Of a DNA stretch of 64,000 bases, positions 1 through 49,903 are shown in pieces. A program made the position numbers and the translations under genes. The notes under the pieces are model-generated. The model had not been told where the DNA came from and did no database searches. It saw only the letters and a program-made list of their open reading frames with translations. Numbering within the stretch: the first letter of the stretch is position 1; every line of letters begins with the position of its first letter. The stretch is from assembly GCA_012719395.1 (NCBI GenBank), contig JAAYAL010000035.1, positions 6,084 to 70,083 on the forward strand. The letters run 5' to 3'. The DNA is from Gaiellales bacterium (lineage in GTDB: Bacteria > Actinomycetota > Thermoleophilia > RBG-16-64-13).

Positions 1-1892
1 GGGGCCAGGTCAAGCAGCGGCTGGCGGGCACGGAGAATCCGCGACTTGACACCGGGACCACTGAGGTGATGGTCACGGAGTTGACGGTGCTGGCCGAGTC
101 GGACGCGTTGCCGTTCGCGGTGTCGGAGAAGGCCATGGTGGCGGGGGCGCCCTCGGCGGAGGCCGAGCAGGTGGCCGAGGACCTGCGGCTGCAGTATCGC
201 TACCTCGACATCCGCCGCCCCTCCATGCTGGACAACCTGGCGCTGCGCCACCGCATCTTCCAGACCGTTCGCCAGTTCTTGGACGAACGAGGCTTTTTGG
301 AGATCGAGACGCCCGTGCTGACCATGAGCACCCCGGAGGGCGCCCGCGACTATCTGGTGCCCAGCCGTGTCCACCCTCAGAACTTTTACGCGCTGCCCCA
401 GTCGCCCCAGCTCTTCAAGCAGTTGCTCATGATCGGCGGCGTGGAGCGCTACTTCCAGCTGGCACGCTGCTTCCGTGACGAGGATCTGCGTCCCAACCGG
501 CAGCCGGAGTTCACGCAGCTGGACCTGGAGGCCTCCTTTATCGACGAGGAGTTCCTCTACGAGCTGGTCGAGGAGCTCACCGTCAAGATGTTCGCCGTGG
601 GGGAGATCGAGCTCGCCCGGCCCTTCCCGCGCATGACCTACGCCGAGGCCATGGACACCACCGGCTCCGATCGCCCGGACCTGCGCTTCGGCCTGCGCTT
701 CGTGGACGTGACCGACGTGTTCGCCCACACCGACTACGCCATCTTCCGCCAGATCCTGCAGCGCGGTGGCTGTATCAAGGGCCTCAATCTCAAGGGCCAG
801 TCCCCGCGCCTGAGCAAGAACGTGCTGCAGAACGAGTACGCCAAGGAGATCGCTCCCTCCTTCGGGGCCAAGGGCATGACCTGGATGCGGGCGGAGAACG
901 GCGGGCTGGAGTCCAACATCGTCCAGTTCTTCAGCGCGGAGGAGTTGGAGGAGCTGCGGCGGCGCTTCGACGCTGCCGACGGCGACGTCCTCATCATGGT
1001 GGCCGACCCCTCCTACGAGGTGGTCACCTCGGCTCTGGGCCAGCTGCGCCTGCATTTGGCCCACCGGCTGGGGCTCATTCCTGCCGGCAGCTTCTGCCCG
1101 GTGTGGATCACCGAGTTCCCGCTCTTCGACCCCACCGACGAGGGCGGTGTGACCTCCAGCCACCATCCCTTCACGGCGCCTGATCGCACCGATTTCGATC
1201 CCACCAACATCGAGGAGCTGTTGGCCCTGCGCTCGCGGGCCTACGACCTGGTGGTCAACGGCGAGGAGCTGGGCGGTGGGAGCATTCGCATCAACAACCG
1301 GGACGTGCAGCGCAAGATCTTCGCGGCGCTGGGGCTCTCGGACGAGGACGTGCGCGAACGCTTCGGCTTCTTCCTGCGCGCTTTCGACTTCGGGGCGCCG
1401 CCGCACGGCGGGCTGGCGCTGGGCATGGATCGCACGGTGGCGATGATCCTGCAGACGTCCTCCATACGCGAGGTGATCGCCTTTCCCAAGAACCGCAGCG
1501 CCGCCTGTCCGCTGACGGGGGCGCCGTCGGCGGTGAAGCGCGAGCAACTGGCGGAGCTGGAACTGCTGAACCTGGGCGGCCAGGACCTGCTGCCGGGGAC
1601 GGCGGAGAAGGAGGACTGGATCGACCGGTTGTCGTGGGTGTCGCGCATCGGGATAGGGGCGGAGGAGCGGTCGGTCATGGAGGAGACGGTGCGGCGGGCA
1701 GAGGCGCTGGCGGCGCTGGCGGCCGAGAAAGCGGGCGGCGAGAAGCCGATGTACAGCGTGGTGCCCGTGGCCAATCGCATGCGTCCCGGAATCGAGGCGC
1801 GGCGGTCGGAGCTTGCCCAAAGCGGTCGTCTGCTGAAAAACGCGCCGTCAACCAAGGGCGACTACTTCAGAGTCGCCGGCATCCTGGAATAA
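1..1892 (+). CDS. aspS: Aspartyl-tRNA synthetase (5'-truncated by window edge) with C-terminal GatC-like domain fusion
   Basis: The reading frame is open to position 1, and the first Met sits at 66. The translation carries class II aaRS AspRS motifs (LRLQYRYLDIRRP, FYALPQSPQLFKQLLMIGG, FQLARCFRDED, GGGSIRI, GLALGMDR). The last ~95 aa (DWIDRLSWVSRIG...LLKNAPSTKGDYFRVAGILE) align to GatC, e.g. the B. subtilis GatC tail KNAPDHKDGYIRVPSILD. Confidence 0.85.
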   Translation, partial: GQVKQRLAGTENPRLDTGTTEVMVTELTVLAESDALPFAVSEKAMVAGAPSAEAEQVAEDLRLQYRYLDIRRPSMLDNLALRHRIFQTVRQFLDERGFLEIETPVLTMSTPEGARDYLVPSRVHPQNFYALPQSPQLFKQLLMIGGVERYFQLARCFRDEDLRPNRQPEFTQLDLEASFIDEEFLYELVEELTVKMFAVGEIELARPFPRMTYAEAMDTTGSDRPDLRFGLRFVDVTDVFAHTDYAIFRQILQRGGCIKGLNLKGQSPRLSKNVLQNEYAKEIAPSFGAKGMTWMRAENGGLESNIVQFFSAEELEELRRRFDAADGDVLIMVADPSYEVVTSALGQLRLHLAHRLGLIPAGSFCPVWITEFPLFDPTDEGGVTSSHHPFTAPDRTDFDPTNIEELLALRSRAYDLVVNGEELGGGSIRINNRDVQRKIFAALGLSDEDVRERFGFFLRAFDFGAPPHGGLALGMDRTVAMILQTSSIREVIAFPKNRSAACPLTGAPSAVKREQLAELELLNLGGQDLLPGTAEKEDWIDRLSWVSRIGIGAEERSVMEETVRRAEALAALAAEKAGGEKPMYSVVPVANRMRPGIEARRSELAQSGRLLKNAPSTKGDYFRVAGILE

Positions 1893-1898
1893 GGGGAC

Positions 1899-3116
1899 GT
1901 GGCCATGGATCCCATCTTCTTCCATCGCAATCCGGATCCCGCCACGGCGGAGGGCCCACGGCAGGGACTGCGGGTGGCCCTCCAGCCCAACCTGGCCGTC
2001 GCGGGCTGGCCCATGGAAGCCGGCTCCCGGGCCTTGGCAGGTTACGCGGCGCCGGAGGACGCCACCATCGTGCGGCGGCTGCGAGCGTCCGGCGCCCATC
2101 TCTCCGGCTCCACTCATATGAGCGAGTTCGGCTTGGGTCTGGCCGGCAATGGGACGGGGGCGGCGCTGCGGGCCGGCGAGGCCGACGTGGAGCTGGTGCT
2201 GGACCTCATGGGGGAGAGCCGGCTGGCCGCGGCCGGTGCCGCCGTCTGCGGCTTCAAGCCCAGCTACGGACTGGTATCGCGGTTCGGCCTGGTGGGGCTC
2301 ATTCCCTCCATGGAGTGCTGCGGCATCATGTCTGAGAGCCTGGGCGGCATCCGTGCCGTGCTGCAGGTCGTGGCCGGTCAGGACGGCCTTGATTTCTCGC
2401 TTCCCGAGGAGCCGGTGCCGGACTTCGCGCCCGAGACCGTCGATCCGGCGCGGATCACGGTCGGCGTGGTGGGGGAGGCGCAGCACGACCTCGGCGTTAC
2501 GCAGGAGGAGGCATTTCGTTCGGCGATCGACGGCATGGCCGGGGCGGGATTCGCCGTCCGGCAGGTGTCGCTGCCGGAGTGGCCTCTCTTTGCCTTGGTG
2601 CATAGGATCGTGGGCTCGGTGGAGGCTTCGTCCGCGGCCGGCCGTTACGATTCCGTTCGCTACGGCCGACGAGCATCGGGCGCCAAGAACTGGAACGAGA
2701 TGTATCTGCTGTCGCGTGGCGCGGCGTTTGGGACGCTGCTCAAGAGCTACCTCATCCAGGGTGCCTACTTCCAGTTCGAGCGCTACGGTGCGTTTGAGGA
2801 CGCGTGTCGCATCCGCGCGCGGCTCGTGGGGGAGATGCGGCGGCTGATGGCGGAGGTGGACGTCCTGGCACTGCCGGCGGTGGTTTCGGGGCCGAGAGGG
2901 GGCGAGGCTGCCGATGACGCTTCGGATGCGCCGGACGGCGTGTACGCTCAGTTCGCCTTGACGCTGTTCGCCAATGTGACCGGCCAGCCGGCCCTGTGTC
3001 TCCCGTCGACCATGGCGTCGCACACGGGGCTCCAGCTGGTAGGTCCGCGCCTCAGTGACGGGCGGCTCCTGGCGCTTGCCGAGTACCTGCAAAAGACGGG
3101 CCGGGGAGGCAACTGA
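1899..3116 (+). CDS. gatA: GatA-like amidase-signature protein (shortened, catalytic triad degenerate)
   Basis: It lies between aspS-gatC and gatB with 3-6 nt gaps. Amidase-signature motifs are present (CGFKPSYGLVSRFGLVG, EASSAAGRYDSVRYG) and the C-terminal tail resembles GatA. At 405 aa it is shorter than the ~485 aa typical of GatA. Gln replaces the catalytic Lys (VALQPNL), and GNGTG replaces the GGSSGG cis-Ser region. Confidence 0.7.
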   Translation: MAMDPIFFHRNPDPATAEGPRQGLRVALQPNLAVAGWPMEAGSRALAGYAAPEDATIVRRLRASGAHLSGSTHMSEFGLGLAGNGTGAALRAGEADVELVLDLMGESRLAAAGAAVCGFKPSYGLVSRFGLVGLIPSMECCGIMSESLGGIRAVLQVVAGQDGLDFSLPEEPVPDFAPETVDPARITVGVVGEAQHDLGVTQEEAFRSAIDGMAGAGFAVRQVSLPEWPLFALVHRIVGSVEASSAAGRYDSVRYGRRASGAKNWNEMYLLSRGAAFGTLLKSYLIQGAYFQFERYGAFEDACRIRARLVGEMRRLMAEVDVLALPAVVSGPRGGEAADDASDAPDGVYAQFALTLFANVTGQPALCLPSTMASHTGLQLVGPRLSDGRLLALAEYLQKTGRGGN

Positions 3117-3118
3117 CC

Positions 3119-4549
3119 ATGGAATTCGAAGCGGTCATCGGCCTGGAGATCCACGTGGAGCTGAACTGCACCACCAAGCTGTTCTGCGACTGCCCCAATC
3201 GCCCCGGGGATGATCCCAATGCCAATACCTGTCCCACCTGCCTTTGGCTGCCGGGCGCCATGCCGCGGCTCAGCGAGCAGGCGCTGGAGAAGGCGTCGCT
3301 GCTCTGTCTGGCCCTGGGCGCCGAGCTGCAGCCTCGCAGCGCCTTCGACCAGAAGGTGTACTACTACCCGGACCTGCCCAAGGGCTACCAGCTTTCTCAG
3401 GCCCATCTGCCGCTGGCGCGCGGCGGAGGCGTCGACATCATCGATGAGGACGGCTCCCCTTGCCGGCTGCGCATCCACCACGTCCACATGGAAGAGGACG
3501 TAGCCAAGCTGGTGCACGAGATGGAGGGCCGGGTGCCCATCAGCCTGGTGGACTTCAATCGCGCGGGGGCACCGTTGGTGGAGATCGTCACGGAGCCGGA
3601 TTTCCGCGCGCCGCACCAGGCCATGGAGTTCCTCAAGGCGCTGCGCACCCAGGTTCGCTACGTGGGCGCTTCCGAGTGCAGCATGGAGAACGGCACCATG
3701 CGCTGCGACGCCAACATCTCCGTCCGTCCCCGCGGCACCACACAGATGAACACCAAGGTGGAAGTCAAGAACATGAACTCGGTGCGGCACGTGGGCGACG
3801 CCATCGCCTACGAGATCGAGCGGCAGGGCGCGTCCGTGCAGGCGGGTGAGGCGGTGGTGCTGCACACGCGGCTGTGGGACCCGGACAAGAAGGCCACTTT
3901 GCCCATGCGTGCCAAGTTCGAGGGACCCACCGTGCCCGATCCGTCCGTGTCCGCCATTGAGCTGTCGCGGGAATGGATCGAGCGGATGCGGGCGCAGCTG
4001 CCGGAGATGCCGGCGGCGCGGGCCGAGCGGTTGGTGGAGCAGCATGGGCTGACGCGAGACGAAGCGCTCTCGTTGAGCGCCGACCCGGAGTCGGCCGACT
4101 TCCTCGAGGCCCTGGTGGCCGAGGGCGTGGCGCCGCGCATGGCCATGCACTGGCTGACCACGCAGCTGCTGCCCGCAGTGAGGGAGCGGCGGCAGGGACT
4201 GGGGACCTCACCTGTGTCTCCCGTGCGGCTGGCCGGGCTGTTGCACATGCTGGCCAAGGAGGAGGTCAACGCCAAGGCGGCGCGCGATGTGCTGGCGCAG
4301 ATGTTTGAGAGCGACCGGAGGCCGGAGGCGATCGTGCAGGCCTGCGGCTTCTCCCAGATCTCAGACCGTGGAGCCCTTGACGACCTGATCGATCAGGTGA
4401 TCCGCGGGCAGGAATCAGCCGTGGCCAACTACCGCGCCGGGCAGGAGAAGGCGCTGGGCTTCCTGGTGGGTCAAGTGATGCAGGCCTCGCGGGGGAAGGC
4501 CAACCCCAAGGTGATCAGGGAGCTGTTGGTGGAGAGACTGGGCGCGTAG
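3119..4549 (+). CDS. gatB: Asp-tRNA(Asn)/Glu-tRNA(Gln) amidotransferase subunit B
   Basis: The translation has the GatB N-terminus MEFEAVIGLEIHVEL and the Cys cluster CDCPNRPGDDPNANTCPTCLWLPG. It has a YqeY-like C-terminal tail and is 476 aa. Confidence 0.9.
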   Translation: MEFEAVIGLEIHVELNCTTKLFCDCPNRPGDDPNANTCPTCLWLPGAMPRLSEQALEKASLLCLALGAELQPRSAFDQKVYYYPDLPKGYQLSQAHLPLARGGGVDIIDEDGSPCRLRIHHVHMEEDVAKLVHEMEGRVPISLVDFNRAGAPLVEIVTEPDFRAPHQAMEFLKALRTQVRYVGASECSMENGTMRCDANISVRPRGTTQMNTKVEVKNMNSVRHVGDAIAYEIERQGASVQAGEAVVLHTRLWDPDKKATLPMRAKFEGPTVPDPSVSAIELSREWIERMRAQLPEMPAARAERLVEQHGLTRDEALSLSADPESADFLEALVAEGVAPRMAMHWLTTQLLPAVRERRQGLGTSPVSPVRLAGLLHMLAKEEVNAKAARDVLAQMFESDRRPEAIVQACGFSQISDRGALDDLIDQVIRGQESAVANYRAGQEKALGFLVGQVMQASRGKANPKVIRELLVERLGA

Positions 4550-6853: not shown

Positions 6854-7016
6854 AGGCGGTTGCGGCCGGGATCAGGCCGGGGGGGATTGAGCCGGATGTG
6901 GGGGGGCGCCGCCTCCGGGGGAGGCGGCGCCCCCTTGTCTCACGCTCAACCCCGTGTGGGAGCACGTGGCGCGTCTTGTCCTGGAACGTGAGAGAGTTCC
7001 CGCCGCGCCGTACGTC

Positions 7017-9564: not shown

Positions 9565-10770
9565 GTGAGTGCCATGAGTGACCCATTTGAACATCTCACG
9601 TTCCTGTCGTTGGAACAGGCCACCATCCTGCCGTACCTTTCCTGGCGCTTTGCACAGGAGGGCGTGCGCGTCATACGCATCGAGCATCCCACGCAATGCG
9701 ATCCGAACCGTCGCATTGGCTCGCCGTACCGCGAGGGGGAGGATCTGATGTGTGACTACTTCCTGGCCGGCAACGCCGGGAAGGAGGCCATCACCCTCAA
9801 TCTCAAAGATCCGCGGGCTCGGCGGCTGCTGGGCGAGTTGCTGGTGCGCTTGGACGTCGACATCTTTGCCGCCAACACTCTCCCCAAGCACATGAAGGCC
9901 CTGGGCGTTGGCTACGAGGAGCTCAGCGCGGTGAAGAAGGACCTCATCTGGGTGGGGCTGACCGGCTTTGGCCCCGACAGTGACGAGCCCGCCTACGATC
10001 CTATCCTCCAGGCTCGCGGCGGGATCATGGACATGACCGGCGAGGCCGAAGGGGAGCCACAATTGGCCGGCGTCTATCTGCCCGACATCGGCACGGCCAA
10101 GGATGCGTACGGGGAGATCATGAAGGCGTTGTACCGACGGGCCGTCACCGGCCGGGGCAGCCGCATTGACGTGTCCATGCTACAGGCGACGGCCTCCTGG
10201 CTTCTGCAGCCCATCACCATGTGCAAGAGCTTCGGGCGAGTGATGCACCGCCGGGGCAACAACCACCCCTTCTTTGTGCCCTCGGGCGTCTTCCCCACCA
10301 GCGACGGCTGGCTCTATATCGCCATCGGCAACGATCTGCAATGGGGACGTTTACTGGAAATCGCGGGGTTTGAGGAGTTGGACCGCGCCGGTTGGGCCGC
10401 CAACCGGGGCCGTGCCCAGGATCGGGACCACGTGCTGCAGGCGGTGGCGGCCTGTACGGGGCGCTATGCCACGGATGCGCTGCTTGGGCGGCTGCATGCC
10501 CACTCCGTCCCTGCAGGGAAGTGTAACGATGTGACCGGTGTCTGCGAAGACCCATTCGTGGCGCCCCATCTGGTGCGCAGCTGCGAGGAGGCCACCGGCT
10601 TCGAGGTGATCATGTCGCCGCCTCCCGTCACCAGCGAGTGGCTGCGCAGACACGACATGACCATGAGTTTTCCGCCACGCTTGGGGGAGCACAACGAGCG
10701 CATCTTCATGGGCGATTTGGGTATAAGTGAGGCGGAGTACCTCACACTGCGCGCCGACGGCGTCATCTGA
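9565..10770 (+). CDS. CoA-transferase family III (CaiB/BaiF-like)
   Basis: The translation has the family III CoA-transferase architecture and motifs (LTFLSLEQATILPYLSWRFAQEGVRVIRIEHP...DVFAANTLP). It is 401 aa. Confidence 0.8.
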   Translation: MSAMSDPFEHLTFLSLEQATILPYLSWRFAQEGVRVIRIEHPTQCDPNRRIGSPYREGEDLMCDYFLAGNAGKEAITLNLKDPRARRLLGELLVRLDVDIFAANTLPKHMKALGVGYEELSAVKKDLIWVGLTGFGPDSDEPAYDPILQARGGIMDMTGEAEGEPQLAGVYLPDIGTAKDAYGEIMKALYRRAVTGRGSRIDVSMLQATASWLLQPITMCKSFGRVMHRRGNNHPFFVPSGVFPTSDGWLYIAIGNDLQWGRLLEIAGFEELDRAGWAANRGRAQDRDHVLQAVAACTGRYATDALLGRLHAHSVPAGKCNDVTGVCEDPFVAPHLVRSCEEATGFEVIMSPPPVTSEWLRRHDMTMSFPPRLGEHNERIFMGDLGISEAEYLTLRADGVI

Positions 10771-11087
10771 CCGGGCGCTGTCGACACCTTCTGACGCGTT
10801 GACATCCGTGGCCGGTGGGCGGAGCACTTGGGCACGGCTCTTGTCTCTCCAATCTTGTGTCCATGATGTGATGGACGATCCGGAGGAGGGGCACCGGCTG
10901 TGTGAGGAGCTGGGTCGTGGGGCGGTCGGCTGGGACTGCCTCAGCGTGCCCCGGCATGACTGCGACCAAGCGGAGTACTCTGTGCGCATGGAAAAGGTGG
11001 TGCCGGCGACTGCCGAGGGCGACCGCCCCTGAAGGTCACGCCGACCCTTCAGATGACCGTGATCTCCCAGGGTGTCCGGCGGGGGTG

Positions 11088-11525
11088 CTAGAACGCTTCC
11101 AACTGGCAGTGACTGATCTTGATTCCCAGGGCATCGCAGGTCGAGGCCACCGCCGCCTTCTCCACGCCCATCGTGGCGGCCACCTTCCAGCAGGACGCGC
11201 AGCTGATGTGGCCATCGGCGGCCAGACGGAGCAGACGGTCCCGGAGGTCCTCGGACACCTGCTCTACCGGCCGCACGACGGCCCTCTCGGGCCCGTAGCC
11301 GAAGAGGCCCATTTGGCACTCAACGATGCGGTACTCGAGGAGGTCGGCCGTGTTGCCGATCTGGGAGGGCGCGACCATGAGCCTCTGCGCCACGTGGTGG
11401 GCGGCCGTGCATGTCAGCCGGCCGTCCGCGGTCTCCTCATTGAGGGCCGCCACGATGGCCGGGTCGGCAACGGTCCCCGCCGGGTGCTTCGCCCTGTACT
11501 TGCCGGCCTCTTCACGTGTCATCAC
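11088..11525 (-). CDS. Hypothetical Cys-rich (putative metal-binding) protein
   Basis: This 145-aa protein has a conserved-looking Cys pattern (LTCTAAHH...ISCASCWKV...STCDALGIKISHC). No family was confidently recognised. Confidence 0.45.
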   Translation of the reverse strand: MMTREEAGKYRAKHPAGTVADPAIVAALNEETADGRLTCTAAHHVAQRLMVAPSQIGNTADLLEYRIVECQMGLFGYGPERAVVRPVEQVSEDLRDRLLRLAADGHISCASCWKVAATMGVEKAAVASTCDALGIKISHCQLEAF

Positions 11526-12051
11526 TTGCCCTCCGCGATATGGTGCGTGCGACTGTTGCTGTTTGAAAGTCCGGGCGATCGCTGCTGCGCCGGCTGCGAC
11601 AGGTCAAGGAGCGCCTGACCTCTCGACGCCAGGGCTTCTGCCCAGGACTGCAGCAGCCCACGCCCCAGGGGCGCACCATTGTGCGAGCGACGAAGGGCCG
11701 GAGGTACTCACTTCCCAGGTGGAACTGACCATCCCCGCCTCTTCCAATAGTTGCAGGATACCGTAGATGCTGCCTGGGTCAACGTGTACGAGGTCTCCGA
11801 CCACCACCTCGACATGCTCGATGAGTGCGTACCTGCGAACGCAGGAGGCTCCGCCGTCTCTCTGCGGTCCTCTTGGTGCGTTTGTGATCATCCGCCTTGT
11901 ACGGTGAATTCCTACACTTTCTGCCGCGTTCCGGGCGCCGCGCGCGGTCTGTGGCGGGCCACCATGCATGCGCGCTATTCTGTCTACAAGGGGAAGGCTG
12001 AGCGGTTGTTGCAGTCGCGGGGCATTTGCACCCTCGGGAGAAAGGGAGCAT

Positions 12052-12477
12052 ATGGGTATCCTCAGCTTGGTCGACTGCTGTAGCTGGGTCCTCATCACCG
12101 GAGGGCGTGTGCAGCCCTTCTACCACTCCGAGTACCGACAGGTTGCTACGCTGCGCAAGGTCCGCCCCGAACCTCACCTGCAGATCAACCCTGAGGCCGC
12201 GCGTGAGCTGGGCATCCCCGATGGCGAGTGCGTGTGGATAGAGACGCCGCTGGGGCGGATCACGCAAAAGGCCGCTTGCTTCCCAGGGATCGATCCCCAG
12301 GTGGTGCATGCGGAGCACACTCGGTGGTTCCCGGAGGAGGACGACGTCGAGCCCAACCTGTACGGTGTCTTTCGCTCCAACGCCAACGTCTTGGTGGACG
12401 AGGATCCGGAGATATGCAATCAGAGCAGCGGCGGCTATCCCACCCGGGGCCTGCTCTGCAAGGTCTACCGGAAGTAG
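12052..12477 (+). pseudogene. C-terminal (domain IV / Molydop_binding) fragment of a Mo/W-bisPGD oxidoreductase
   Basis: The translation MGILSL...VLITGGRVQPFYHSEY...HLQINPEAARELGIPDGECVWIETPLGRITQKAACFPGIDPQVVHAEHTRWFPE...SNANVLVDEDPEICNQSSGGYPTRGLLCKVYRK matches only the last ~140 aa of DMSO-reductase-family enzymes. The upstream ~600 aa are absent, but an ATG with a GAAAGGGAG SD is present. Confidence 0.5.
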
Positions 12478-12637
12478 CCATGAGCCGTGGCGGGTGGGGC
12501 AACGCGGGGCTGGACGTGAACGGCCGAATGCCCTCGCCGTTGGGCGTGTGTGGCAAGTGACCCTTACTGGCTGGGCTCCCGGCTTGGGAGAATAGGGTGT
12601 CAGGAAGAGCGCAGGCAGCGACAGGAGGTGGAGGGGA

Positions 12638-13438
12638 ATGAGCAACGCCGAGCGGGCGACTGGCGGCTCTGCGGTCACTCAGGATCTTGAGCCGCGGTTC
12701 CGGAATCTGCGCTGGTGGAACATCGTGGTGGGTCTGATCCTAGCCGTGCAGGCGGTGATCTTGGCCGTGCTGTCCAACGATTTCACCATCCCGGTGACGG
12801 CCGGCTACCTGCAGGGCCCCCCCGGGACTGATCCCGTCCTCACCAGGATTGGCGGCCTGCAGCTGGCCTGGGGTGTCTTCGCCTTTATGGCCATCTCGGC
12901 ACTGGCGCTACTCACCATTGCTTCGCCGGGGGTCTTTGGCTGGTACAAGCGCAATCTCACCCAGAGTCGCAACTACGGCCGCTGGATCGAGTATTCCATC
13001 AGTTCGTCACTCATGATCATGCTCATCTCCATGGTGTGCGGCATCACCGATATCGCGGCCATCCTCGCCATCTTTGGCGTGAACGCCTGCATGATCTTCT
13101 TCGGGCTCCTGGTGGAGAAGTACGAGACCCCCGGCAAGACCAACTGGGCGTCCTATCTGTTCGGCTGCTTCGCGGGCATCGTCCCGTGGATCGCCATCGT
13201 GGTGTACCTCGTCAGCCCCGGATACGACGGCGGGCGGCCCCCGGGCTTCGTGTACGCGATCCTGGTCTCCTACTTCGTGTTCTTCAACACCTTTGCCGTC
13301 AACATGGTGTTGCAGTACAAGCGGGTGGGAAAGTGGCGGGATTACCTCTTCGGCGAGAAGGTCTACATCCTGCTCAGCCTGACCTCCAAGTCGCTGCTGA
13401 CCTGGTTGGTGTTCGCGAATACGCTCATCCCTTCGTAG
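12638..13438 (+). CDS. Heliorhodopsin (7-TM retinal protein, inverted topology family)
   Basis: There is near-colinear similarity to heliorhodopsin 48C12 (LSNDF.IP.T.GYL.GPPGT; RWIEYSISSSLMIMLI..VCGI.DIAAILAIFGVNA.MIFFG.L.EKY; GCFAGIVPWIAIVVY; PGFVYAILVSYFVFFNTFA; QYKRVGKWRDYL.GEKVYILLSLTSKS). The Schiff-base Lys lies in the last helix. The SD is GGAGG. Confidence 0.85.
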   Translation: MSNAERATGGSAVTQDLEPRFRNLRWWNIVVGLILAVQAVILAVLSNDFTIPVTAGYLQGPPGTDPVLTRIGGLQLAWGVFAFMAISALALLTIASPGVFGWYKRNLTQSRNYGRWIEYSISSSLMIMLISMVCGITDIAAILAIFGVNACMIFFGLLVEKYETPGKTNWASYLFGCFAGIVPWIAIVVYLVSPGYDGGRPPGFVYAILVSYFVFFNTFAVNMVLQYKRVGKWRDYLFGEKVYILLSLTSKSLLTWLVFANTLIPS

Positions 13439-13450
13439 GGGCGACGTTGA

Positions 13451-13489
13451 GGTGAGTGAGGGGGCGCCCACCCGGCAGAACCTGCCGGG
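13451..13489 (+). terminator. Long near-perfect hairpin after heliorhodopsin
   Basis: It forms an 18-bp stem ggggcgcccacccggcag / ctgccgggcgggcgcccc (one mismatch) with an aac loop, 13 nt after the stop. Confidence 0.5.
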
Positions 13490-13595
13490 CGGGCGCCCCG
13501 CGACGTCCTGACCACCTTTTGCGCGGTTCCCAGGCGCGCATGGGCGCGCTATGGTGCACAGGGCGTTGTTGTGTTTCCCGAAGGGCGGTGGTGTG

Positions 13596-14003
13596 ATGGC
13601 TTGTCTCTCGATGATCGGCGTGGCCCGGATGGGCGTGCGCGTGGGCGACATCAACTACGGTGGCCACATGGGGAACGACAAAGCGCTGCTGGCCTTCCAT
13701 GATGCCCGACTGGCCTATCTGGAGGCGTTGGGCTTCTCCGAGGGCGATATCGGCGGCGCCGGCATCATCATGCGGGATGCCTACGTTCTCTTTCACCGGG
13801 AGGTGTGGCGGCGGGACGTGCTGGTGGTGGATGTGGGTATTGAGGACGTGAGGAATTCCTCCTTCACCATGACCTACACCGTGAGACGGGAGAGCGACGA
13901 TGAGGTGGTCTTCACGGGGCGGACCGTCCTGGTGGCCTTCGACTACGGCAGCCGCAGACCGGTGCGGGTCCCCGAGGTGTTTCGGGAGAAGATAGGGGCA
14001 TAG
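13596..14003 (+). CDS. Hotdog-fold acyl-CoA thioesterase (4HBT/YbgC-like)
   Basis: The motifs VRVGDINYGGHMGNDKALLAFHDARLAYL and FTMTYTV...VVFTGRTVLVAFDY are present. The start is uncertain: the track ORF begins at 13551, and Met codons lie at 13596, 13611 and 13629. Confidence 0.65.
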   Translation: MACLSMIGVARMGVRVGDINYGGHMGNDKALLAFHDARLAYLEALGFSEGDIGGAGIIMRDAYVLFHREVWRRDVLVVDVGIEDVRNSSFTMTYTVRRESDDEVVFTGRTVLVAFDYGSRRPVRVPEVFREKIGA

Positions 14004-15415: not shown

Positions 15416-15558
15416 GGAGGCTGACGGGCCGGCAGTTGCCGGCTGGAGCGCAGCCTCTTCTCCGTGTGATCTCGCGCTCCGGGTGCCTCGCACTCGGAGC
15501 GCCGCTCTTTGTGGTGAGATTCCCTTTCCGGTGGAGTGCGCCCCCGCGTGGCGGGTGC

Positions 15559-18500
15559 CTACGGCCGGCTCAGTTCCTCATACGCGTTGCGGAACATGCG
15601 CAGCCAGGGGCTGTTATGGTGGCGCCACCGCGGTGGGACCCAGGGCCACTGCCGTAGCTGGAAGCAACGCTCCGGGTGGGGCATGAGGGCCAGGTGCCGT
15701 CCATTCGGTGAGCACAGGGCGGCGATGCCCAGCGGGCTGCCGTTGGGGTTGAAGGGGTAGGCGATGGTGGGCTCACCCTCCGGGTCCACGTAGCGGATGG
15801 GTGCCAGGCGATTGGCCACGATCCAGTCCAGCGTGGCCGGATCCGGCACGTGCAACCGGCCTTCGCCGTGTGCCACCCAGATGCCCAGGATCGAATCCTC
15901 CATGCCCTGCAGCATGACGGCGGGGCTGGGCCCGATGCGCACCGTGCTGAAGCGGGACTCGAAGCGCTCCGAGGTGTTGCGGATGAAGCGCGGCTGCCGG
16001 TGGTCCGGTAGGTCGAAGCCGGGGATGCCCAGCAGGGCCATGAGCTGGCAGCCGTTGCAGACGCCCAGGGACAGCGTGTCCGGGCGGGAGAAGAACGTGG
16101 TGAACTCCTCAGAGAGACGCTCATGGTTGCGGATCACCGAGGCCCAGCCCTTGGCTGAATCCAGGACGTCCCCGAAGGAGAAGCCGCCCACGAAGGCCGC
16201 GAGCTGGAAATCCTGCAGGTCCACGGAGCCGTTGAGGAGGTCGGTGGTGGTGACGTCCCAGGGCTCGAAGCCGGCCGCCAGGAAGGCGGCGGCCATCTCG
16301 CGGTCGCCGTTGCTGCCCTCCTCGCGCAGAATGGCGGCGCGGGGGTGGGAACCACGAGTACGGCGTCGCTCCGGGGAGGGCGCCGCGGCCCGACTACCCG
16401 GAAAGGTGCCGTGGGGGCCGGGATCGGCGTCGGGGTCGAAGCTGAGGCGGTAGGGTGTGGTGACCGGGGGTAGGTGGTGTGATTGCCATTCCTGCTCGGC
16501 GCACCCGGGGTTGGCCTGCAGGCGCTCGAGGCGGTAGGCCGTCTCCTCCCAGGCCAGGTGGAGATCCCGGAGCGGCTTCCGCAGGAGCGGCTCCCTGTTG
16601 AAAGCGAGTTCCAGCGTGGGCGCATCCTGCACGGTGCCGAGATCCACTGCCGTCACCCCGTGGCACTCAAGGACAGCCGCTGCCTGTGCTTCGGCGCCTT
16701 GCGCCACCTCCACCACCACAGCTGCCTCTTCGGCAAACAGGGCGTGGTAGGGGTCCTCTCCGGCCACGTCCACCCGCCAGCCACGGTCGCCGGCGAAGGC
16801 CATTTCCAGCAGGGTGACGATCAGCCCACCATCGCTCACGTCGTGGCAGGACACGATGGCCCCGCGTCGCACCAGTTCCTGCACGGCGTGGAAGACGGCC
16901 TTGAGCGTGGCCGCCTCCTCGATGTCCGGTGTTTCGTCGCCCAAGGCGCCCAGCACCTGGGCCAGCGCGCTGCCGCCCAGCCGCTGCCGCCCTCCCACGG
17001 GGAGCAGCAGCAGACGGTCGCCGGCAGCCTTGAGGTCCGGCGTTACCCGCACCTCCACGTCCTCCACCAGGGCGTAGGGGGCGATCACCAGCTGCGGTGG
17101 CGACAGCACCAGCTCGGAGCTACCGTCCGGCGCCACGCCCTGGCTGGCCATGGACAGGCTGTCCTTGCCGCCGTCGACGGCCACGCCCAGCTCCGACAGA
17201 AGATCGCGTAGGGCGCAGGCGGCGTCGTAGAGCCAGGCTCCCTCGCCGGGCTGCTTGGCGGCCAGCATCCAGTTGGCGGAGCATTTGATGTCACTGAGGT
17301 CGGTGACGACGACCCCGGCCATGTTGAGCAGGGCCTCGGCCACGGCCATGCGCGCGCCGGGACCGGGCGAGAGCAGGCCCTTCAGGGGCTGCTCGCCCAG
17401 GCTGAGGGCGGTACCGGAGGGGTCGGCGTAGCTCTGGGCGATGACGGCGTGGTCGGAGAGGGGTAGATGCCGTGGCCCCACCAATTGCCGCTGCATGACC
17501 AGCCCGGTGACGTCCAGGTCCACCTTGTTGGTGAGGAAGCGCTTGGAGCAGACGCTGGGGAGGCGGAGCACCAGGTCCAGCAGGCGGCCGAAGCCGGAGG
17601 CCGGGGGGAGGGACAGGGGCCGCGCAATGCGGGGGCGCCGGTCGAAATCGAAGCGCTTGGGTGGCAGCTGGCCAAGAATGTCGTCCAGGGGGAGTTCCAC
17701 CGGGCGCGAACCGTCGCGCGTGTCCTGGAGAACCAGGAGCCCCTCGCCGGTTACGCGCCCCACCACGGCCAGTGGCACGTTCTCGCGCGCGGCCACAGCC
17801 TCCAGCACCGCGAGATTCTGGGGGCGGATGAGAAGGGCGTTGCGCTCCTGCGATTCGTTGCCCCAGATCTCCAGCACGGACAGTGTCTGATCACCCACGG
17901 GGATGGCACGGAGGTCGATCACCGCTCCCGCCGGCTCCACGATCTCCGGCAGGGCGTTGCAGTCACCGCCGGCGCCCAGGTCGTGGGCGGAGACGACGGG
18001 GTTGGCCTCTCCCAACTCGGCGCAGGCCCGCATGAGGCGGTTCATGCGCTGTTCCATCTCCGGGTCGCCGCGCTGCACGGCGTTGAAATCCAGCTCCTGC
18101 ACATTCCGGCCCTGCTCCATGCTGCTGGCCGCGCCGCCGCCCATGCCGATGCGGTAGGCGGGGCCGCCCACCTGCACCACCAGCATGCCGGCCTCCGGTG
18201 CGCCCTTGACCGTGTGCTGGTCCCGGATCTGACCGGCGCCCACGCTGTACATGAGGGGCTTGTACCAGGAACGGTAGCCCTCGGGGAGGTGCAGACCGAA
18301 GCTGCGGGTGAAGCCGTAGATGAGGGGCTCGCCGAAACAGTTGCCGTAGTCGGAGGCGCCGTTGCTGGCCTGGATGAGGATGTCCAGGGGCGAGGCCAAG
18401 TCCGGCGGGTGGGCCCAGCCGTCCTCCTCCCAGGGCAGCTCGTAGCCGGGGATGTGCAGGTTGCCGGTGCAGTAGGCGGCGCCGGCTGCGCATACCAGAC

Positions 18501-19524
18501 CGCTGCGTCCCACCGCCTGGTTGTCGCGGATGCGCCCGCCGGCGCCGGTGGCCGCGCCGGGATAGGGTGCCACGCCCGAGGGGAAGTTGTGGGTCTCGGC
18601 GGTCAGCGTGGGGTGGAGCAGGACCGGCTGTGGTGCCAGGGGCGACGGGCCCAGCGGCTGCGCGGCGGCGAGAAGGGACACACGGCGGCCGGCGATGGCC
18701 GAGCTGTCGTCGCGGAAGGCGATCACCGAGTTGGGCGCCGAAGCTTCCAGCGGCTGCCGCACGATGTCCATGAGGTGCTTCTCGGGCACGCGCACGCCGT
18801 CCACCCACAGCCGGCCCCGAAAGACCCAGTGGCGCGAGTGCTCCGAGTTGGCCTGGGCGATCTGGAAGAGCTCCACGTCTGTGGGATCCCGGCCCAGGCG
18901 GCCGTAGATGGAGGCGATAAGCGCCAGGTCATCGCCATCCCAGCTGCAGCCGTAGTCGCGGTTGAAGCGCTGCAGGGCGCCGATGCCCAGGGCGGCCAGC
19001 GGGATCACTTCCACCGGCTGGGGCGTGAGGCCGGTCTCGAAGGAGGTCAGCGGCTGGCGGTAGCGCATCTCCGTCATGCGGTCGCGCAGGATGTTGACCA
19101 GTGCCTCGGCCTGCTCCTCGGTGACTGTCAGTGGCAACCCCAGCCGCATTGAGCGCTCCAGGCGCCACACCGCCCCCACGCCTGATCTCCTGCAGATCTC
19201 CACGGCGGCGGAGGACCACGCCGTTTCGAAGTTGAGGCGGGGGCCGTACTCGAGCACGGTGGGGAAGCGGCCTTCCAGGAAGCTGCCGTCCCCGAACCTG
19301 TCGGGTTCGAAGGTCTCGGAGAGGACGTAGCGCAGGATGTCCGCGTCACGGTCGGTGAGCGCGGTGCCCGCGTGGTGTCCTGTCTCCGCGTAGAAACAGT
19401 GCTCGGTGGCCACCTGTCCTACCGGTTTGCCCAGGATGGCCTCAGCGGTCGAGACGAAGGCCTCGACCCTGGTCGCGGTCATGCCCGGGGTACGGAAGAA
19501 ACGCCACATGCTCATAGGCCACAA
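15559..19524 (-). CDS. purL: Phosphoribosylformylglycinamidine synthase, large single-chain form
   Basis: The 1321-aa protein has an FGAM synthase N-domain, AIR-synthase-related domains and a C-terminal class I glutaminase domain in one polypeptide. Confidence 0.9.
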   Translation of the reverse strand: MWPMSMWRFFRTPGMTATRVEAFVSTAEAILGKPVGQVATEHCFYAETGHHAGTALTDRDADILRYVLSETFEPDRFGDGSFLEGRFPTVLEYGPRLNFETAWSSAAVEICRRSGVGAVWRLERSMRLGLPLTVTEEQAEALVNILRDRMTEMRYRQPLTSFETGLTPQPVEVIPLAALGIGALQRFNRDYGCSWDGDDLALIASIYGRLGRDPTDVELFQIAQANSEHSRHWVFRGRLWVDGVRVPEKHLMDIVRQPLEASAPNSVIAFRDDSSAIAGRRVSLLAAAQPLGPSPLAPQPVLLHPTLTAETHNFPSGVAPYPGAATGAGGRIRDNQAVGRSGLVCAAGAAYCTGNLHIPGYELPWEEDGWAHPPDLASPLDILIQASNGASDYGNCFGEPLIYGFTRSFGLHLPEGYRSWYKPLMYSVGAGQIRDQHTVKGAPEAGMLVVQVGGPAYRIGMGGGAASSMEQGRNVQELDFNAVQRGDPEMEQRMNRLMRACAELGEANPVVSAHDLGAGGDCNALPEIVEPAGAVIDLRAIPVGDQTLSVLEIWGNESQERNALLIRPQNLAVLEAVAARENVPLAVVGRVTGEGLLVLQDTRDGSRPVELPLDDILGQLPPKRFDFDRRPRIARPLSLPPASGFGRLLDLVLRLPSVCSKRFLTNKVDLDVTGLVMQRQLVGPRHLPLSDHAVIAQSYADPSGTALSLGEQPLKGLLSPGPGARMAVAEALLNMAGVVVTDLSDIKCSANWMLAAKQPGEGAWLYDAACALRDLLSELGVAVDGGKDSLSMASQGVAPDGSSELVLSPPQLVIAPYALVEDVEVRVTPDLKAAGDRLLLLPVGGRQRLGGSALAQVLGALGDETPDIEEAATLKAVFHAVQELVRRGAIVSCHDVSDGGLIVTLLEMAFAGDRGWRVDVAGEDPYHALFAEEAAVVVEVAQGAEAQAAAVLECHGVTAVDLGTVQDAPTLELAFNREPLLRKPLRDLHLAWEETAYRLERLQANPGCAEQEWQSHHLPPVTTPYRLSFDPDADPGPHGTFPGSRAAAPSPERRRTRGSHPRAAILREEGSNGDREMAAAFLAAGFEPWDVTTTDLLNGSVDLQDFQLAAFVGGFSFGDVLDSAKGWASVIRNHERLSEEFTTFFSRPDTLSLGVCNGCQLMALLGIPGFDLPDHRQPRFIRNTSERFESRFSTVRIGPSPAVMLQGMEDSILGIWVAHGEGRLHVPDPATLDWIVANRLAPIRYVDPEGEPTIAYPFNPNGSPLGIAALCSPNGRHLALMPHPERCFQLRQWPWVPPRWRHHNSPWLRMFRNAYEELSRP

Positions 19525-19707
19525 ACCATATCACGCCGACCGCCTGTGCGGGCACGCCGGCATGTCGGCGTGCCGGTCCTGTCGCGTCGGCCAGGAGGTG
19601 CCAAACGGCGCCCTGTTTGCTCGCGGGGGAGACACGCAATCCGGTATCCTGTTGCGGGCCGCCCACATCCCCGGGACGGTCGGGAGAGGAGGACCGTCAC
19701 GGGCACC

Positions 19708-21210
19708 GTGGGTTTCGACAACCAGAAGTACCTGGAGGAGCAGAGCCGCGCCATCGTGAGCCGCGCCGGGCGCATCGGCGGCAGGCTCTATCTGGAGTTC
19801 GGCGGGAAGATCACCTACGACTTCCACGCCGCGCGCGTGCTGCCGGGCTATGACCCCAACGTCAAGATCCGGCTGCTGCAGCAGCTCAAGGACCAGGTGG
19901 AAATCATCGTCTGCATCTACGCTGGTGCCATCGAGCAGCGCAAGGTGCGCGCCGATTTCGGCATCCCCTACGACGTGGATGCGCAGAAGCTCATCGACGA
20001 CCTGCGCGACTGGGGTCTCCCCGTGCGCGCCGTGGTCATCACCCGCTTCGAGGATCAGCCCTCGGCCCGCGTCTTTCGGGCGCGGCTGGAGCGCCGCAGC
20101 ATTGCCGTCTACACCCATCGCTTCACCAGCGGTTACCCCACTGATGTGGACCGCATCGTCAGCCGGGAGGGCTACGGTGCCAACGATTACATCCCCACCG
20201 AACGGCCGGTGGTGGTGGTGGCCGGCCCGGGGCCGGGGAGCGGCAAGCTGGCCACCTGCCTGTCCCAGCTCTACCACGAGCATCGGCGCGGCAACGCTGC
20301 CGGCTACGCCAAGTTCGAGACCTTTCCCATCTGGGACCTGCCGCTCAAGCACCCGGTCAACGTGGCCTACGAAGCGGCCACGGTGGAGCTCCACGACGTT
20401 AACCAGATCGACCCCTACCACCTGGCGGCCTACGGCGAGCAGGCGGTGAACTACAATCGGGACATCGAGGCCTTCCCCCTGCTGGCGCGCATCCTGCAGC
20501 GGGTGGGGGGAGCCGCTTTCTACCGGTCGCCCACCGACATGGGCGTCAACCGCGCCGGCTCCGCCATTGTGGATGACGGCGTGGTGCGTGTCGCCGCCGA
20601 GCAGGAGGTCATCCGCCGCCACTTCCGCTATGCCTGCGAGTACGCCGTGGGCTTGGTGGAGCGCGAGGATGCGGAGCGCGCTCAGCTCATCATGCACGAG
20701 TTGGGCTTGGACGAGGAGCAACGAGTGGTGGTCCTGCCGGCCCGGCAGGCGGCTGCCGAGGGGGAAGCCAAGGGCAAAGGCAACGACGGCGTCTACTGTG
20801 GAGCGGCCATCGCTCTGCCGGACGGCCAGATCGTCACCGGCAAGAACTCCACGCTCATGCATGCCGCCTCCGCGGTGGTGCTGAACGCTGTGAAGCACCT
20901 CTCCCGGATCCCGGACGAGATGCCGTTACTCACCCCGGCGGTGATGGAGTCCATCGCCGCTCTCAAGAAGAACGTGCTGCGCATGAAGTCGGTGAGCCTG
21001 GATCTGGACGAGATGTTGATCGCCCTGGGCATCAGCAGCGCCACCAATCCGGCCGCGGCTGCCGCGGTGGGCCATCTCACCGACCTGGCGGGGTGCGAGT
21101 TCCACACCACCCACCTGCCCACCGCCGGCGACGAAGCCGGCCTCCGGCGCCTCGGTCTCAACGCCACCAGCGATCCGCAGTTCGCCACCCAGTCGCTGGT
21201 CATCGGTTAG
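19708..21210 (+). CDS. DUF1846 (UPF0371) family protein
   Basis: The N-terminus GFDNQKYLEEQSRAIVSRAGRIGGRLYLEFGGKITYDFHAARVLPGYDPNVKIRLLQQLKDQVEIIVCIYAG matches UPF0371. The likely start is the GTG near 19708, downstream of GGAGAGGAGGA. The track ORF start at 19372 overlaps the divergent purL. Confidence 0.7.
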   Translation: MGFDNQKYLEEQSRAIVSRAGRIGGRLYLEFGGKITYDFHAARVLPGYDPNVKIRLLQQLKDQVEIIVCIYAGAIEQRKVRADFGIPYDVDAQKLIDDLRDWGLPVRAVVITRFEDQPSARVFRARLERRSIAVYTHRFTSGYPTDVDRIVSREGYGANDYIPTERPVVVVAGPGPGSGKLATCLSQLYHEHRRGNAAGYAKFETFPIWDLPLKHPVNVAYEAATVELHDVNQIDPYHLAAYGEQAVNYNRDIEAFPLLARILQRVGGAAFYRSPTDMGVNRAGSAIVDDGVVRVAAEQEVIRRHFRYACEYAVGLVEREDAERAQLIMHELGLDEEQRVVVLPARQAAAEGEAKGKGNDGVYCGAAIALPDGQIVTGKNSTLMHAASAVVLNAVKHLSRIPDEMPLLTPAVMESIAALKKNVLRMKSVSLDLDEMLIALGISSATNPAAAAAVGHLTDLAGCEFHTTHLPTAGDEAGLRRLGLNATSDPQFATQSLVIG

Positions 21211-21427
21211 GGCGGTGCGGCCGGCGCGAAGGAGGCGGCAAGGGCTGTGGGAGCCGGTGCTGCTCAGTCAGGCGCTGAGCGCGTCTCGCCGAGGAGCGCC
21301 GCCCGCATCGCCCGCTGCAGGTGGACGGCGCGCTCGCTCCCTGACGGCCGCGCTTTGACCTGCTACAGTGAGGGGCCGGTGGCAGCGTCTGCTGCCCCCG
21401 GCCCCTGCATTTCACGGAAGGAGCCGG

Positions 21428-22012
21428 ATGCTGAGCTTCACGGAGGATCTGGAGGCGGCTCGCCGCGTGCACGGTGGCCGTCACTACTGCCACGGTCTGG
21501 TGCTGGGTGTGCGCTTGGCTCGTGTAGGCTGTCGGCTTCTGGGCTTGGAGGACCCGGCCCACTATCGGGATCTAATGGTGTATGCGGAGACGGATCGTTG
21601 TGCCGCCGATGCCGTGAGCGGCGTTACCGGTGCCACCCTGGGTCGTCGCCGCCTCAAATGGGTGGACTACGGCAAGTTCGCTGCCACGTTCCTGGACTTG
21701 GCTACAGGCAGGGCGGTGCGGGTGTGGGCACGCTCCGACGTCCCCCACGGGCGCCCGGAGCAGGACGCCGTGGAGATGTGGGCTGGCTTCACGGACGATG
21801 AGCTCTTCGGCTGGGACTGGGTGGAGGTGGAGGTGCCGGTCTGCGACCTCCCGGGCCGGCCCCGTTGCCGGGTGCGGTGTGAGGCCTGTGGGGAAGAGGT
21901 GCGTGATGGCCGTCATCGCCGGGTGGAGGGCCGCAACCTGTGCCGGGCCTGCGCCGGAGGCGCATACTATTCGGTCAAGAGGCTGCAGCGGGATGGGGCT
22001 TCGGCGGCCTAG
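21428..22012 (+). CDS. FmdE/FwdE family protein with C-terminal zinc ribbon
   Basis: It carries MLSFTEDLEAARRVHGGRHYCHGLVLGVRLA...YRDLMVYAETDRCAADAVSGVTGATLGRRRLKWVDYGKFAATF, followed by CRVRCEACGE...CRACAG. Confidence 0.65.
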   Translation: MLSFTEDLEAARRVHGGRHYCHGLVLGVRLARVGCRLLGLEDPAHYRDLMVYAETDRCAADAVSGVTGATLGRRRLKWVDYGKFAATFLDLATGRAVRVWARSDVPHGRPEQDAVEMWAGFTDDELFGWDWVEVEVPVCDLPGRPRCRVRCEACGEEVRDGRHRRVEGRNLCRACAGGAYYSVKRLQRDGASAA

Positions 22013-22069
22013 GCGCAGGGGCGAATCGCAGGGGCGAATCGGATACCCAGCAGGAGGAAACAGCCCGGG

Positions 22070-23317
22070 ATGAGCAGCGCATTGGGACAGATCTCGTTGG
22101 CCGTGCTGGTGGGCGGCGAATCCCGGCGTATGGGCTCTGACAAGGCCTTCGCGCCCTTCGCGGGTACAACACTGTTGGCGTGGATGCTGGAGCGCTTTGG
22201 TCCCGCCTTTGCCCACACCTTCATCGTGGCCAACGACGCGTCGCGGTACGCGGATACGGGGGTCCCGGTGGTGAGCGATGCTCTCGCGGAGAGAGGCTCC
22301 ATCGTGGGCGTGTATTCGGCTGCGCTGGCCTCGCCCACGGAGCGTGTTCTCTGCCTGGGCTGCGACATGCCGTTCGTGACGCTGGAGGTCCTGCGCTGCC
22401 TCGCGGCCGAGTCTCAAGGTCACGACATCTGCGTGCCTCGCCACGACGGCGTTATGGAGCCCCTGTGTGCCGTGTATTCGCGCTCGGCTCTACCGGCACT
22501 GCGTTCGGTGGTGGAGGGGGGCGAGCGACGCATCTATGCCTCCTATCCGCTGGTGGACACGGGGTATTGGGATATGGACCCTGTGCGCTTCGCCGATGCT
22601 GATCGCCTCTTCTCCAACATCAATCGCCCGGAGCAGCTGAGGGAGGCGGAGGAGCTGCTTGCGCGTGAGGGCGGCCCTCGGGGGGATCACGGCGATCCGC
22701 TGCGGCGGCTGGCGCCTCGGGTGAGGGCTTTCGTGGAAGCGGTGCCGCTCCCGGTGGTGTCCTTCGTGGGAAAGAAGAAGACCGGCAAGACCACTGTGCT
22801 GGTGCGTGTGGTGGCTGAGCTCGTGGCCCGTGGATACCGCGTGGCCGTGATCAAGCACGACATGCACGGCTTCGACGCCGACGTGCCGGGGCGTGACACC
22901 TACCGCCTGCGCCAGGCGGGGGCCACGGTCACAGGCATATCCTCGCCGGACAAGCAGATGTGGATTGTGATCACGAACCACGAGCCGGAACTGCGGGGGC
23001 TCATCGGCAAGGTGGACGAGCCGGTGGACCTCATTATCACGGAGGGCTTCAAGCGCCAGGCTTCGCCCAAGATCGAGGTCGCCAGGCGGGAACGTAGCGA
23101 GCAGCTGATCTGTGAGGAGAACGAGTTGCTGGGCATCGTCAGCGATATGACCTTCCCCTCGCACCGGGTGCCGCAGCTCTCAGTGGGTGATACTTCCGGC
23201 ATCTGCGACCTGTTGGAGGCGACCGTTCTGGGGCGCGCCGGCGTGGCGTGCATGGAGCCGGCTCCTGACCTCCAGGTGAGGCCGCGGGTGGAACGCGTTG
23301 ACCAGGGGGAATCGTGA
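22070..23317 (+). CDS. mobA: Molybdenum cofactor guanylyltransferase MobA fused to MobB
   Basis: The N-terminus has LAVLVGGESRRMGSDKAF (MobA). The C-terminal half has the P-loop VSFVGKKKTGKTTVLVRVVAELVARGYRVAVIKHDMHGFD (MobB). Confidence 0.8.
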   Translation: MSSALGQISLAVLVGGESRRMGSDKAFAPFAGTTLLAWMLERFGPAFAHTFIVANDASRYADTGVPVVSDALAERGSIVGVYSAALASPTERVLCLGCDMPFVTLEVLRCLAAESQGHDICVPRHDGVMEPLCAVYSRSALPALRSVVEGGERRIYASYPLVDTGYWDMDPVRFADADRLFSNINRPEQLREAEELLAREGGPRGDHGDPLRRLAPRVRAFVEAVPLPVVSFVGKKKTGKTTVLVRVVAELVARGYRVAVIKHDMHGFDADVPGRDTYRLRQAGATVTGISSPDKQMWIVITNHEPELRGLIGKVDEPVDLIITEGFKRQASPKIEVARRERSEQLICEENELLGIVSDMTFPSHRVPQLSVGDTSGICDLLEATVLGRAGVACMEPAPDLQVRPRVERVDQGES

Positions 23318-49827: not shown

Positions 49828-49903
49828 GCGGAGTTAACTCAGCTGGTAGAGTGCCAGCTTCCCAAGCTGGATGTCGCGGGTTCGATCCCCGTACTCCGCT
49901 CCA
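49828..49903 (+). tRNA. tRNA-Gly (anticodon CCC)
   Basis: A cloverleaf was folded by hand. It has a 7-bp acceptor stem GCGGAGT/ACTCCGC, a D-arm ACTC/GAGT, an anticodon stem CCAGC/GCTGG with loop TTCCCAA, a T-arm GCGGG-TTCGATC-CCCGT, a discriminator T and an encoded CCA. Confidence 0.85.

Follow-up and report, generated by a model that had tools for sequence, protein, structure and literature searches.

An intact heliorhodopsin (HeR) gene lies at 12638–13438 on the forward strand of the window, that is, the whole stretch of 64,000 nucleotides analysed here, which belongs to an uncultured member of the Gaiellales, within the Thermoleophilia (Actinomycetota). The explanation that best accounts for the observations overall, and to which a probability of roughly 0.8 is assigned, is that the gene encodes an intact heliorhodopsin of the Leu/Leu type, which would be a non-pumping signal protein with a slow photocycle, and that it would form its own transcript unit, with its partner encoded elsewhere. 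The features discussed below are the following, in the order in which they occur along the window:

11088–11525, reverse strand: open reading frame of 145 aa with no Pfam family, kept in the sister lineage (locus L081) at 70% DNA identity
12088–12477, forward strand: molybdopterin oxidoreductase remnant, the last 129 codons including the Molydop_binding domain (PF01568 only)
12623–12634, forward strand: Shine-Dalgarno region AGGAGGTGGAGG, read from the sequence, 3–9 nt 5' of the HeR ATG
12638–13438, forward strand: heliorhodopsin gene, an ATG-started frame of 266 aa taken from the list of open reading frames, with the stop codon TAG at 13436–13438
13461–13499, forward strand: GC-rich stem-loop (inverted repeat I2), with arms at 13461–13478 and 13482–13499 and the loop AAC
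13596–14003, forward strand: acyl-CoA thioesterase of the hot-dog fold (4HBT_2, PF13279, E=1.3e-22), 135 aa, as is NLT35315.1
14228–15415, forward strand: cell-wall-anchored protein with SLH domains, 395 aa with a signal peptide (PF00395 in two stretches, E=2.4e-20)
15559–19524, reverse strand: PurL as a single chain of 1321 aa with GATase_5, the large fused form and not separate PurL, PurQ and PurS
19693–21195, forward strand: DUF1846 gene, identified from L086 and NCBIfam

The family of the protein was established by several searches. In the Pfam search the 266-aa product matches PF18761 (Heliorhodopsin) along the entire profile (positions 1–242 of 242) with E=3e-94 and 315 bits, the cut-off being 26.7 bits, and no other Pfam family appears at E<=1. 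The NCBIfam equivalog NF038020, “heliorhodopsin HeR,” gives 309 bits (curated cut-off of 100 bits), and the top matches among PDB sequences are heliorhodopsin 48C12 (E=2.9e-67) and the Thermoplasmatales HeR (4e-56). According to the HMMER alignment, residues 21–266 are colinear with 48C12 (structures 6su3/6su4/6uh3), with which the protein shares its length class and 46% identity over 246 residues. An initial annotation of this DNA had already described the product as a heliorhodopsin colinear with 48C12 and had proposed the PF18761 search, which leaves heliorhodopsin as the sole family assigned. The gene had also been deposited previously in GenBank under the correct name, since entry NLT35314.1, entitled “MAG: heliorhodopsin HeR [Gaiellales bacterium]” and derived from an 85-kb contig, is identical to the protein of the window.

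The predicted structure points in the same direction. The AlphaFold model, built from 38 homologues and of only moderate confidence (pLDDT 65.7, pTM 0.61), contains seven helices and a β-hairpin in the AB loop formed by strands 51–57 and 67–74. Its TM scores are 0.86/0.90 against 6su3 (48C12) and 0.84/0.89 against 6is6, and at most 0.62 against type-1 rhodopsins, so that the modelled fold would resemble 48C12 and TaHeR far better than it does the type-1 rhodopsins. On the basis of homology to these two proteins, the HeR is expected to be embedded in the membrane with its N-terminus in the cytoplasm, that is, with the inverted topology.

The HMMER alignment was also used to place the residues of the protein on the numbering of 48C12, and the comparison was extended to the 120 closest database clusters (121 sequences with the query) and to 80 HeR loci from GTDB genomes. 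The Schiff-base lysine of helix 7 is K251 (K241 of 48C12) and is invariant in the 121 homologues and the 80 genome loci; the retinal lysine that had been recognised in the original reading thus survives realignment. Also invariant among the homologues are the single Glu counterion of helix 3, E118 (E107 of 48C12), and two serines next to the Schiff base, S87 (S76) and S247 (S237). Other residues of 48C12 are kept as well, namely R104 (here R115), E149 (E160), E230 (E240), N101 (N112) and Y108 (Y119); N138, P172 and W173 have identical counterparts, and N217 occupies the position of Asn207. Both W146 and W163 of 48C12 are replaced by Leu.

Four further positions are changed: H23, H80, R91 and Q213 of 48C12 correspond here to L35, L91, W102 and M223. 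His23 and His80 are among the residues that are highly conserved across HeRs (Kovalev et al., PMC7049168), yet both are Leu in this protein, and for this reason the statement that every hallmark block is present was wrong. The replacement leaves the water-filled Schiff-base cavity without its two titratable histidines. Within the set of relatives the same residues are nearly fixed: L35, L91 and W102 are invariant in the query and the 120 database clusters and M223 is found in 119 of 121, while in the genome loci L35, L91 and M223 are invariant (80/80) and W102 occurs in 79 of 81 sequences. The Leu/Leu cavity pair is therefore present in every one of the 200 closest relatives examined (120 clusters and 80 genome loci). 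The hosts of the 80 loci are members of the Thermoleophilia, including the Gaiellales, and other Actinomycetota, together with Dehalococcoidia and other Chloroflexota; many of the subgroup members are HeRs of Dehalococcoidia, which show 62–68% identity to the window HeR. Judged by these alignments, the protein is a member of the Leu/Leu subgroup (HULAa30F3 type), and the subgroup itself is a large clade that extends across Thermoleophilia and Dehalococcoidia, and no single oddity. The loci compared (L001–L080) also include members of the clade from the Chloroflexia and single loci labelled Opitutaceae and delta proteobacterium, and one metagenome-assembled genome (MFD09964.bin.1.34) has three HeR copies (L057, L060, and L067).

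HULAa30F3, which was recovered on a Dehalococcoidia fosmid, is taken as the closest characterised relative. Both of its cavity histidines are replaced by Leu, it absorbs at 562 nm, it accumulates little M and its O state is long-lived, a behaviour that matches that of the H23F/H82F double mutant of TaHeR (Chazan et al., bioRxiv 10.1101/2021.02.16.431466). As described, it is likened to the window HeR by the Leu pair, and both are bacterial HeRs of the 48C12-like branch; 48C12 itself carries H23 and H80 in the cavity. The two differ in their hosts, Chloroflexota in one case and Actinomycetota in the other, and in their surroundings, given that HULAa30F3 adjoins a DegV gene and the window HeR does not.

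The region just upstream of the gene is damaged, and this raises the question of whether the HeR gene could be a relic in the same process of decay. In the frame 11908–12477 the Pfam match is limited to the C-terminal Molydop_binding domain, and comparison with the sister lineage (locus L081), in which an intact molybdopterin oxidoreductase of 563 aa precedes HeR, shows that 12088–12474 corresponds to residues 435–563 of that protein with 87% identity, with no match further upstream. The remnant occurs in four independent assemblies, and its early identification as the remains of a Mo-enzyme is borne out by the intact homologue. It is part of a larger deletion scar relative to L081, covering 10770–12477: about 4.5 kb of L081 sequence is missing from the window, including Lactamase_B, PadR, DUF5320 and CGGC genes and the N-terminal 434 codons of the Mo-enzyme, and in its place there are approximately 565 nt of unrelated sequence (11523–12087). 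Scraps of a peptidase M24 (Creatinase_N/Peptidase_M24) are found at 10872–10971 and 10973–11064.

This setting is what speaks for the idea of a relic; the properties of the gene itself speak against it. The HeR frame is full length and keeps all the residues that are invariant in the subgroup, its Shine-Dalgarno region is conserved in the sister lineage, and the identical protein is encoded in at least nine contigs from several samples. In addition, dN/dS is 0.097 against the sister protein P0001 (94% identical; locus L081, 87% DNA identity), a value that implies a functional gene rather than a relic. The notion that it is decaying like the genes just upstream thus deserves almost no credence, and the gene is best regarded as functional and under purifying selection.

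The next point to consider is whether the HeR gene is expressed on its own. The initial annotation attributed to it a Shine-Dalgarno sequence of its own, and this was upheld: within the region at 12623–12634, L081 has the identical block GGAGGTGGAGGGGA, in a 160-nt spacer that has otherwise diverged. A promoter scan detected no sigma-70-type promoter upstream of HeR, and a GAGAAT/GATAAT box at 12588–12593, aligned between two lineages, was set aside as too weak for a promoter claim. On the 3' side, the GC-rich stem-loop is the tightest among the long hairpins of the window. Its arms, which are 94% complementary, form 9 bp, then an A.C mismatch and a further 8 bp; folded alone it reaches −42.2 kcal/mol, with z = −6.1 against dinucleotide shuffles. 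Of 200 stretches of 90 nt drawn at random from the window, 199 fold less stably than the first 90 nt past the HeR stop. Such a fold lies far beyond what chance would give, and the hairpin is accordingly real. It had been reported as a near-perfect hairpin of 18 bp located 13 nt after the stop; the length of the arms (18 nt) was correct, but the stem has 17 bp and a mismatch and begins 22 nt past the stop. The end proposed for the element, 13489, bisects the hairpin, whose coordinates had been placed 9–10 nt off.

The function of this hairpin as a terminator is plausible. Intrinsic terminators also have a stable GC-rich stem-loop soon after the stop, but they carry a U-tract, and here the U-tract directly after the stem is absent: GCGACGTCCTGACCACC lies immediately 3' of the stem, and the closest TTTT comes only after it, at a distance of 18 nt. 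As a consequence of GCGACGTCCTGACCACC preceding the first TTTT, the terminator scan makes no call on the hairpin. Mycobacterial RNA polymerase terminates poorly in vitro at hairpins that have no tail. The hairpin is probably an element that either ends the transcript or stabilises it, and transcripts may read through into the thioesterase gene, which has the same orientation. Searched for as a repeated element, it returned only its own second arm and two matches with three mismatches. In the sister contig L085 the 5' arm and the loop are identical (GGGGGCGCCCACCCGGCAGAACCT), with a spacer between stop and hairpin that is 7 nt shorter and diverged. The five Logan contigs L081–L085, whose HeR is 94% identical, all end 10–39 nt past the HeR stop, before or inside the hairpin. 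These observations suggest that the sister lineage has retained the hairpin and that short-read assemblies break at it. In the contigs of the same species as the window (n = 4) the hairpin region is identical. As a trait of the HeR family the hairpin was rejected, because a comparably strong fold (z < −2) follows the HeR stop in only 15 of 79 related loci.

Further GC-rich hairpins are found at gene ends of the window, at 6898–6937 and 15474–15502, and in this Gaiellales genome the ends of genes seem as a rule to be marked by tail-poor hairpins. The first of them lies between the convergent aldolase and DUF998 genes and the second between the SLH and PurL genes, both with short, T-poor tails. 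An Rfam scan of the whole window returned only a tRNA (49828–49900); neither a riboswitch nor another known RNA turned up in the vicinity of HeR.

The gene is probably monocistronic, as had been proposed, to judge from the 160-nt spacer that separates it from the dead gene, its own Shine-Dalgarno region and the hairpin of −42 kcal/mol. According to the prediction in PMC11109279, approximately 61% of HeR genes are single-gene units, which makes a monocistronic HeR the common case. If it is indeed transcribed alone, its partner, if there is one, would be encoded elsewhere, and the retinal would also have to come from elsewhere.

A different view is that HeR and the thioesterase, perhaps together with the SLH gene, constitute one operon devoted to light-dependent remodelling of membrane lipids, with the hairpin acting as an attenuator or as a stabiliser of the mRNA. 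Both downstream genes are as first described, a thioesterase and an SLH wall protein, as indicated by the PF13279 and PF00395 matches; the SLH gene is called as 395 aa in L086–L088. The thioesterase starts 157 nt past the HeR stop on the shared strand. An 8-nt indel (GTTGTTGT, 13565–13572), polymorphic with respect to L088 of the same species, lies just upstream of that start and inside a longer reading of 150 aa, which favours the downstream start (135 aa). The short gap, the common strand and the hairpin without a U-tract are all compatible with a joint transcript, and the HeR–thioesterase pair is present in all four contigs of the species; these contigs nevertheless represent a single species and hence provide no independent evidence. 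The lipid theme has a precedent, given that DegV, a fatty-acid-binding protein, has been described as the most characteristic neighbour of HeRs and that lipid remodelling has been proposed on that account (Chazan et al., bioRxiv 10.1101/2021.02.16.431466).

The conservation of the neighbourhood was evaluated by tblastn of seven window neighbours against the 80 GTDB HeR loci, up to 10 kb on either side. None of the seven is a conserved neighbour of HeR among these 80 loci; SLH and PurL occur in 0/80, and a thioesterase homologue was found within 10 kb in a single locus (1/80), 5 kb away and on the opposite strand. The thioesterase is also absent beside the two closely related HeRs that share 84 and 78% identity with the window protein: the first (L001) is preceded by BrkB/YihY and followed by MsrB (SelR) and Rieske genes, and the second (L002) is preceded by a ZIP transporter and followed by Polyketide_cyc2 and DUF763. 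As far as the portion of the neighbour table of Chazan et al. that was available goes, thioesterase families account for about 1% of neighbours and none of them is placed for co-expression. These results make the operon view unlikely. A more specific version, according to which a Leu/Leu HeR would switch an acyl-CoA thioesterase by light, as a lipid-remodelling pair peculiar to the Gaiellales in which the hairpin sets the ratio of the transcripts, is considered very improbable. In L001 (1523–3448), a Gaiellales metagenome-assembled genome, HeR and BrkB/YihY share one open frame of 641 aa with no intervening stop, and the HeR keeps its GAGGAG and ATG; this frame could be a real fusion, a read-through or a sequencing error.

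When the ORFs on either side of HeR in the 80 loci were clustered, recurrent neighbours did emerge. The most frequent is DegV (12/80, in 7 cases immediately downstream on the same strand), which reproduces the link described by Chazan et al. and is in itself a point in favour of a lipid-related role; MarR (11/80, 9 immediately upstream), NUDIX proteins (10/80, 9 immediately downstream) and ABC ATPases (11/80) follow. None of these four occurs within ten genes of the window HeR. The same range was inspected with Pfam and NCBIfam for the partners reported in PMC11109279 and by Chazan et al. (GS, NAD synthetase, photolyase, MerR, TerC, ABC transporter, SDR, alpha/beta hydrolase, DUF2177, DUF2238 and DegV), and none of them was found, which covers all ten operon partners given in PMC11109279. 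In the window at large, 57 of the approximately 62 ORFs, as covered by Pfam or NCBIfam, include no crtI, crtB, crtY, blh, glutamine synthetase, photolyase, DegV or DUF2177 gene; blh is rare near HeRs in general (Chazan et al., bioRxiv 10.1101/2021.02.16.431466). The gene order of the window recurs in GCA_036792195.1 and three ENA contigs. The neighbourhood had been presented as valuable for the elucidation of HeR function, an expectation that does not hold, given that the neighbours are conserved only in the species itself and the sister lineage; they are lineage-specific accidents beside a deletion scar.

Other genes of the window are recorded here for completeness. Beyond PurL there are an FmdE gene (21359–22012) and a fused MobA–MobB gene (22013–23317), a molybdenum-cofactor pair situated 9 kb from the dead Mo-enzyme. 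Between 33843 and 51340, 20–37 kb from HeR, a series of stress and repair genes is found (RecQ, hemerythrin, RmuC, DsbA, flavodoxin, ferritin-like, Fpg and a thioredoxin-reductase-like Pyr_redox_2), too distant to count as neighbours. At the beginning of the window, the AspRS frame (3–1892) contains a GatC domain at residues 579–624 of the same open frame, and the amidase (GatA) frame (1893–3116) matches its profile only from position 133; this could reflect the fusion or overlap of genes in the aspS–gatCAB region (3–4549), or a frameshift there.

With regard to function, the characterised relatives allow a mechanism to be outlined. The HeR would bind all-trans retinal in the membrane and, with HULAa30F3 as a guide, absorb in the green-yellow range, probably near 560 nm; it would pump no ions. 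The Leu/Leu cavity is predicted to give a red-shifted, slow photocycle in which little M accumulates and an O-like state persists. This state would be the signal, most likely acting on another protein by direct contact and so changing its activity. That the protein is a non-pumping photosensor whose long-lived photoproduct modulates another protein by contact is held to be reasonably probable, by analogy with HeRs for which contact partners have been described: glutamine synthetase (PMC9529153), photolyase (PMC9769723) and an ABC transporter (PMC11109279). AbHeR (with glutamine synthetase), TfHeR (with photolyase) and OcHeR (with the OmrDE ABC transporter) belong to the same family, and the use of a slow photocycle as a signal is probably shared too. 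Nonetheless, these HeRs keep the His pair and lie in an operon with their partner, whereas the window HeR has neither the His pair nor an adjacent partner gene.

The possibility that the protein is not a sensor at all, but transports ions under light or harvests light as a rhodopsin with two antennae, has some points in its favour. A viral HeR transports protons (PMC9448325), and a preprint argues for a carotenoid-antenna, light-harvesting role for HeRs (10.1101/2025.11.27.691015). In 48C12 numbering, the motif of the carotenoid site calls for an aromatic side chain at positions 162 and 206, a non-bulky one at 166 and 210, and Gly169 (Kornilov et al., preprint), and this fenestration motif is complete in the window HeR (Y173, F216, C177, A220, and G180). 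On the other hand, proton transport has been reported only for the divergent viral subfamily and the bacterial HeRs that have been tested do not pump (PMC11109279); the closest characterised relative has a photocycle that lasts seconds, too slow for an efficient pump; and the case for HeRs as carotenoid binders is built on docking and sequence motifs, in a preprint. A transporter or antenna role is accordingly quite improbable, and the sensor with a slow photocycle is retained as the preferred reading.

The discovery of this gene is of little importance beyond bookkeeping, since it was already named in GenBank, structures of the family have been solved and a Leu/Leu member has been characterised spectroscopically. 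The locus provides a mildly useful negative, namely that the partner of this HeR is not to be learned from the genes around it, and it is one more stand-alone HeR gene, which is the majority class. Its general point lies in the Leu/Leu pair, which is present in all 80 genome loci and in all 120 of the closest database clusters.
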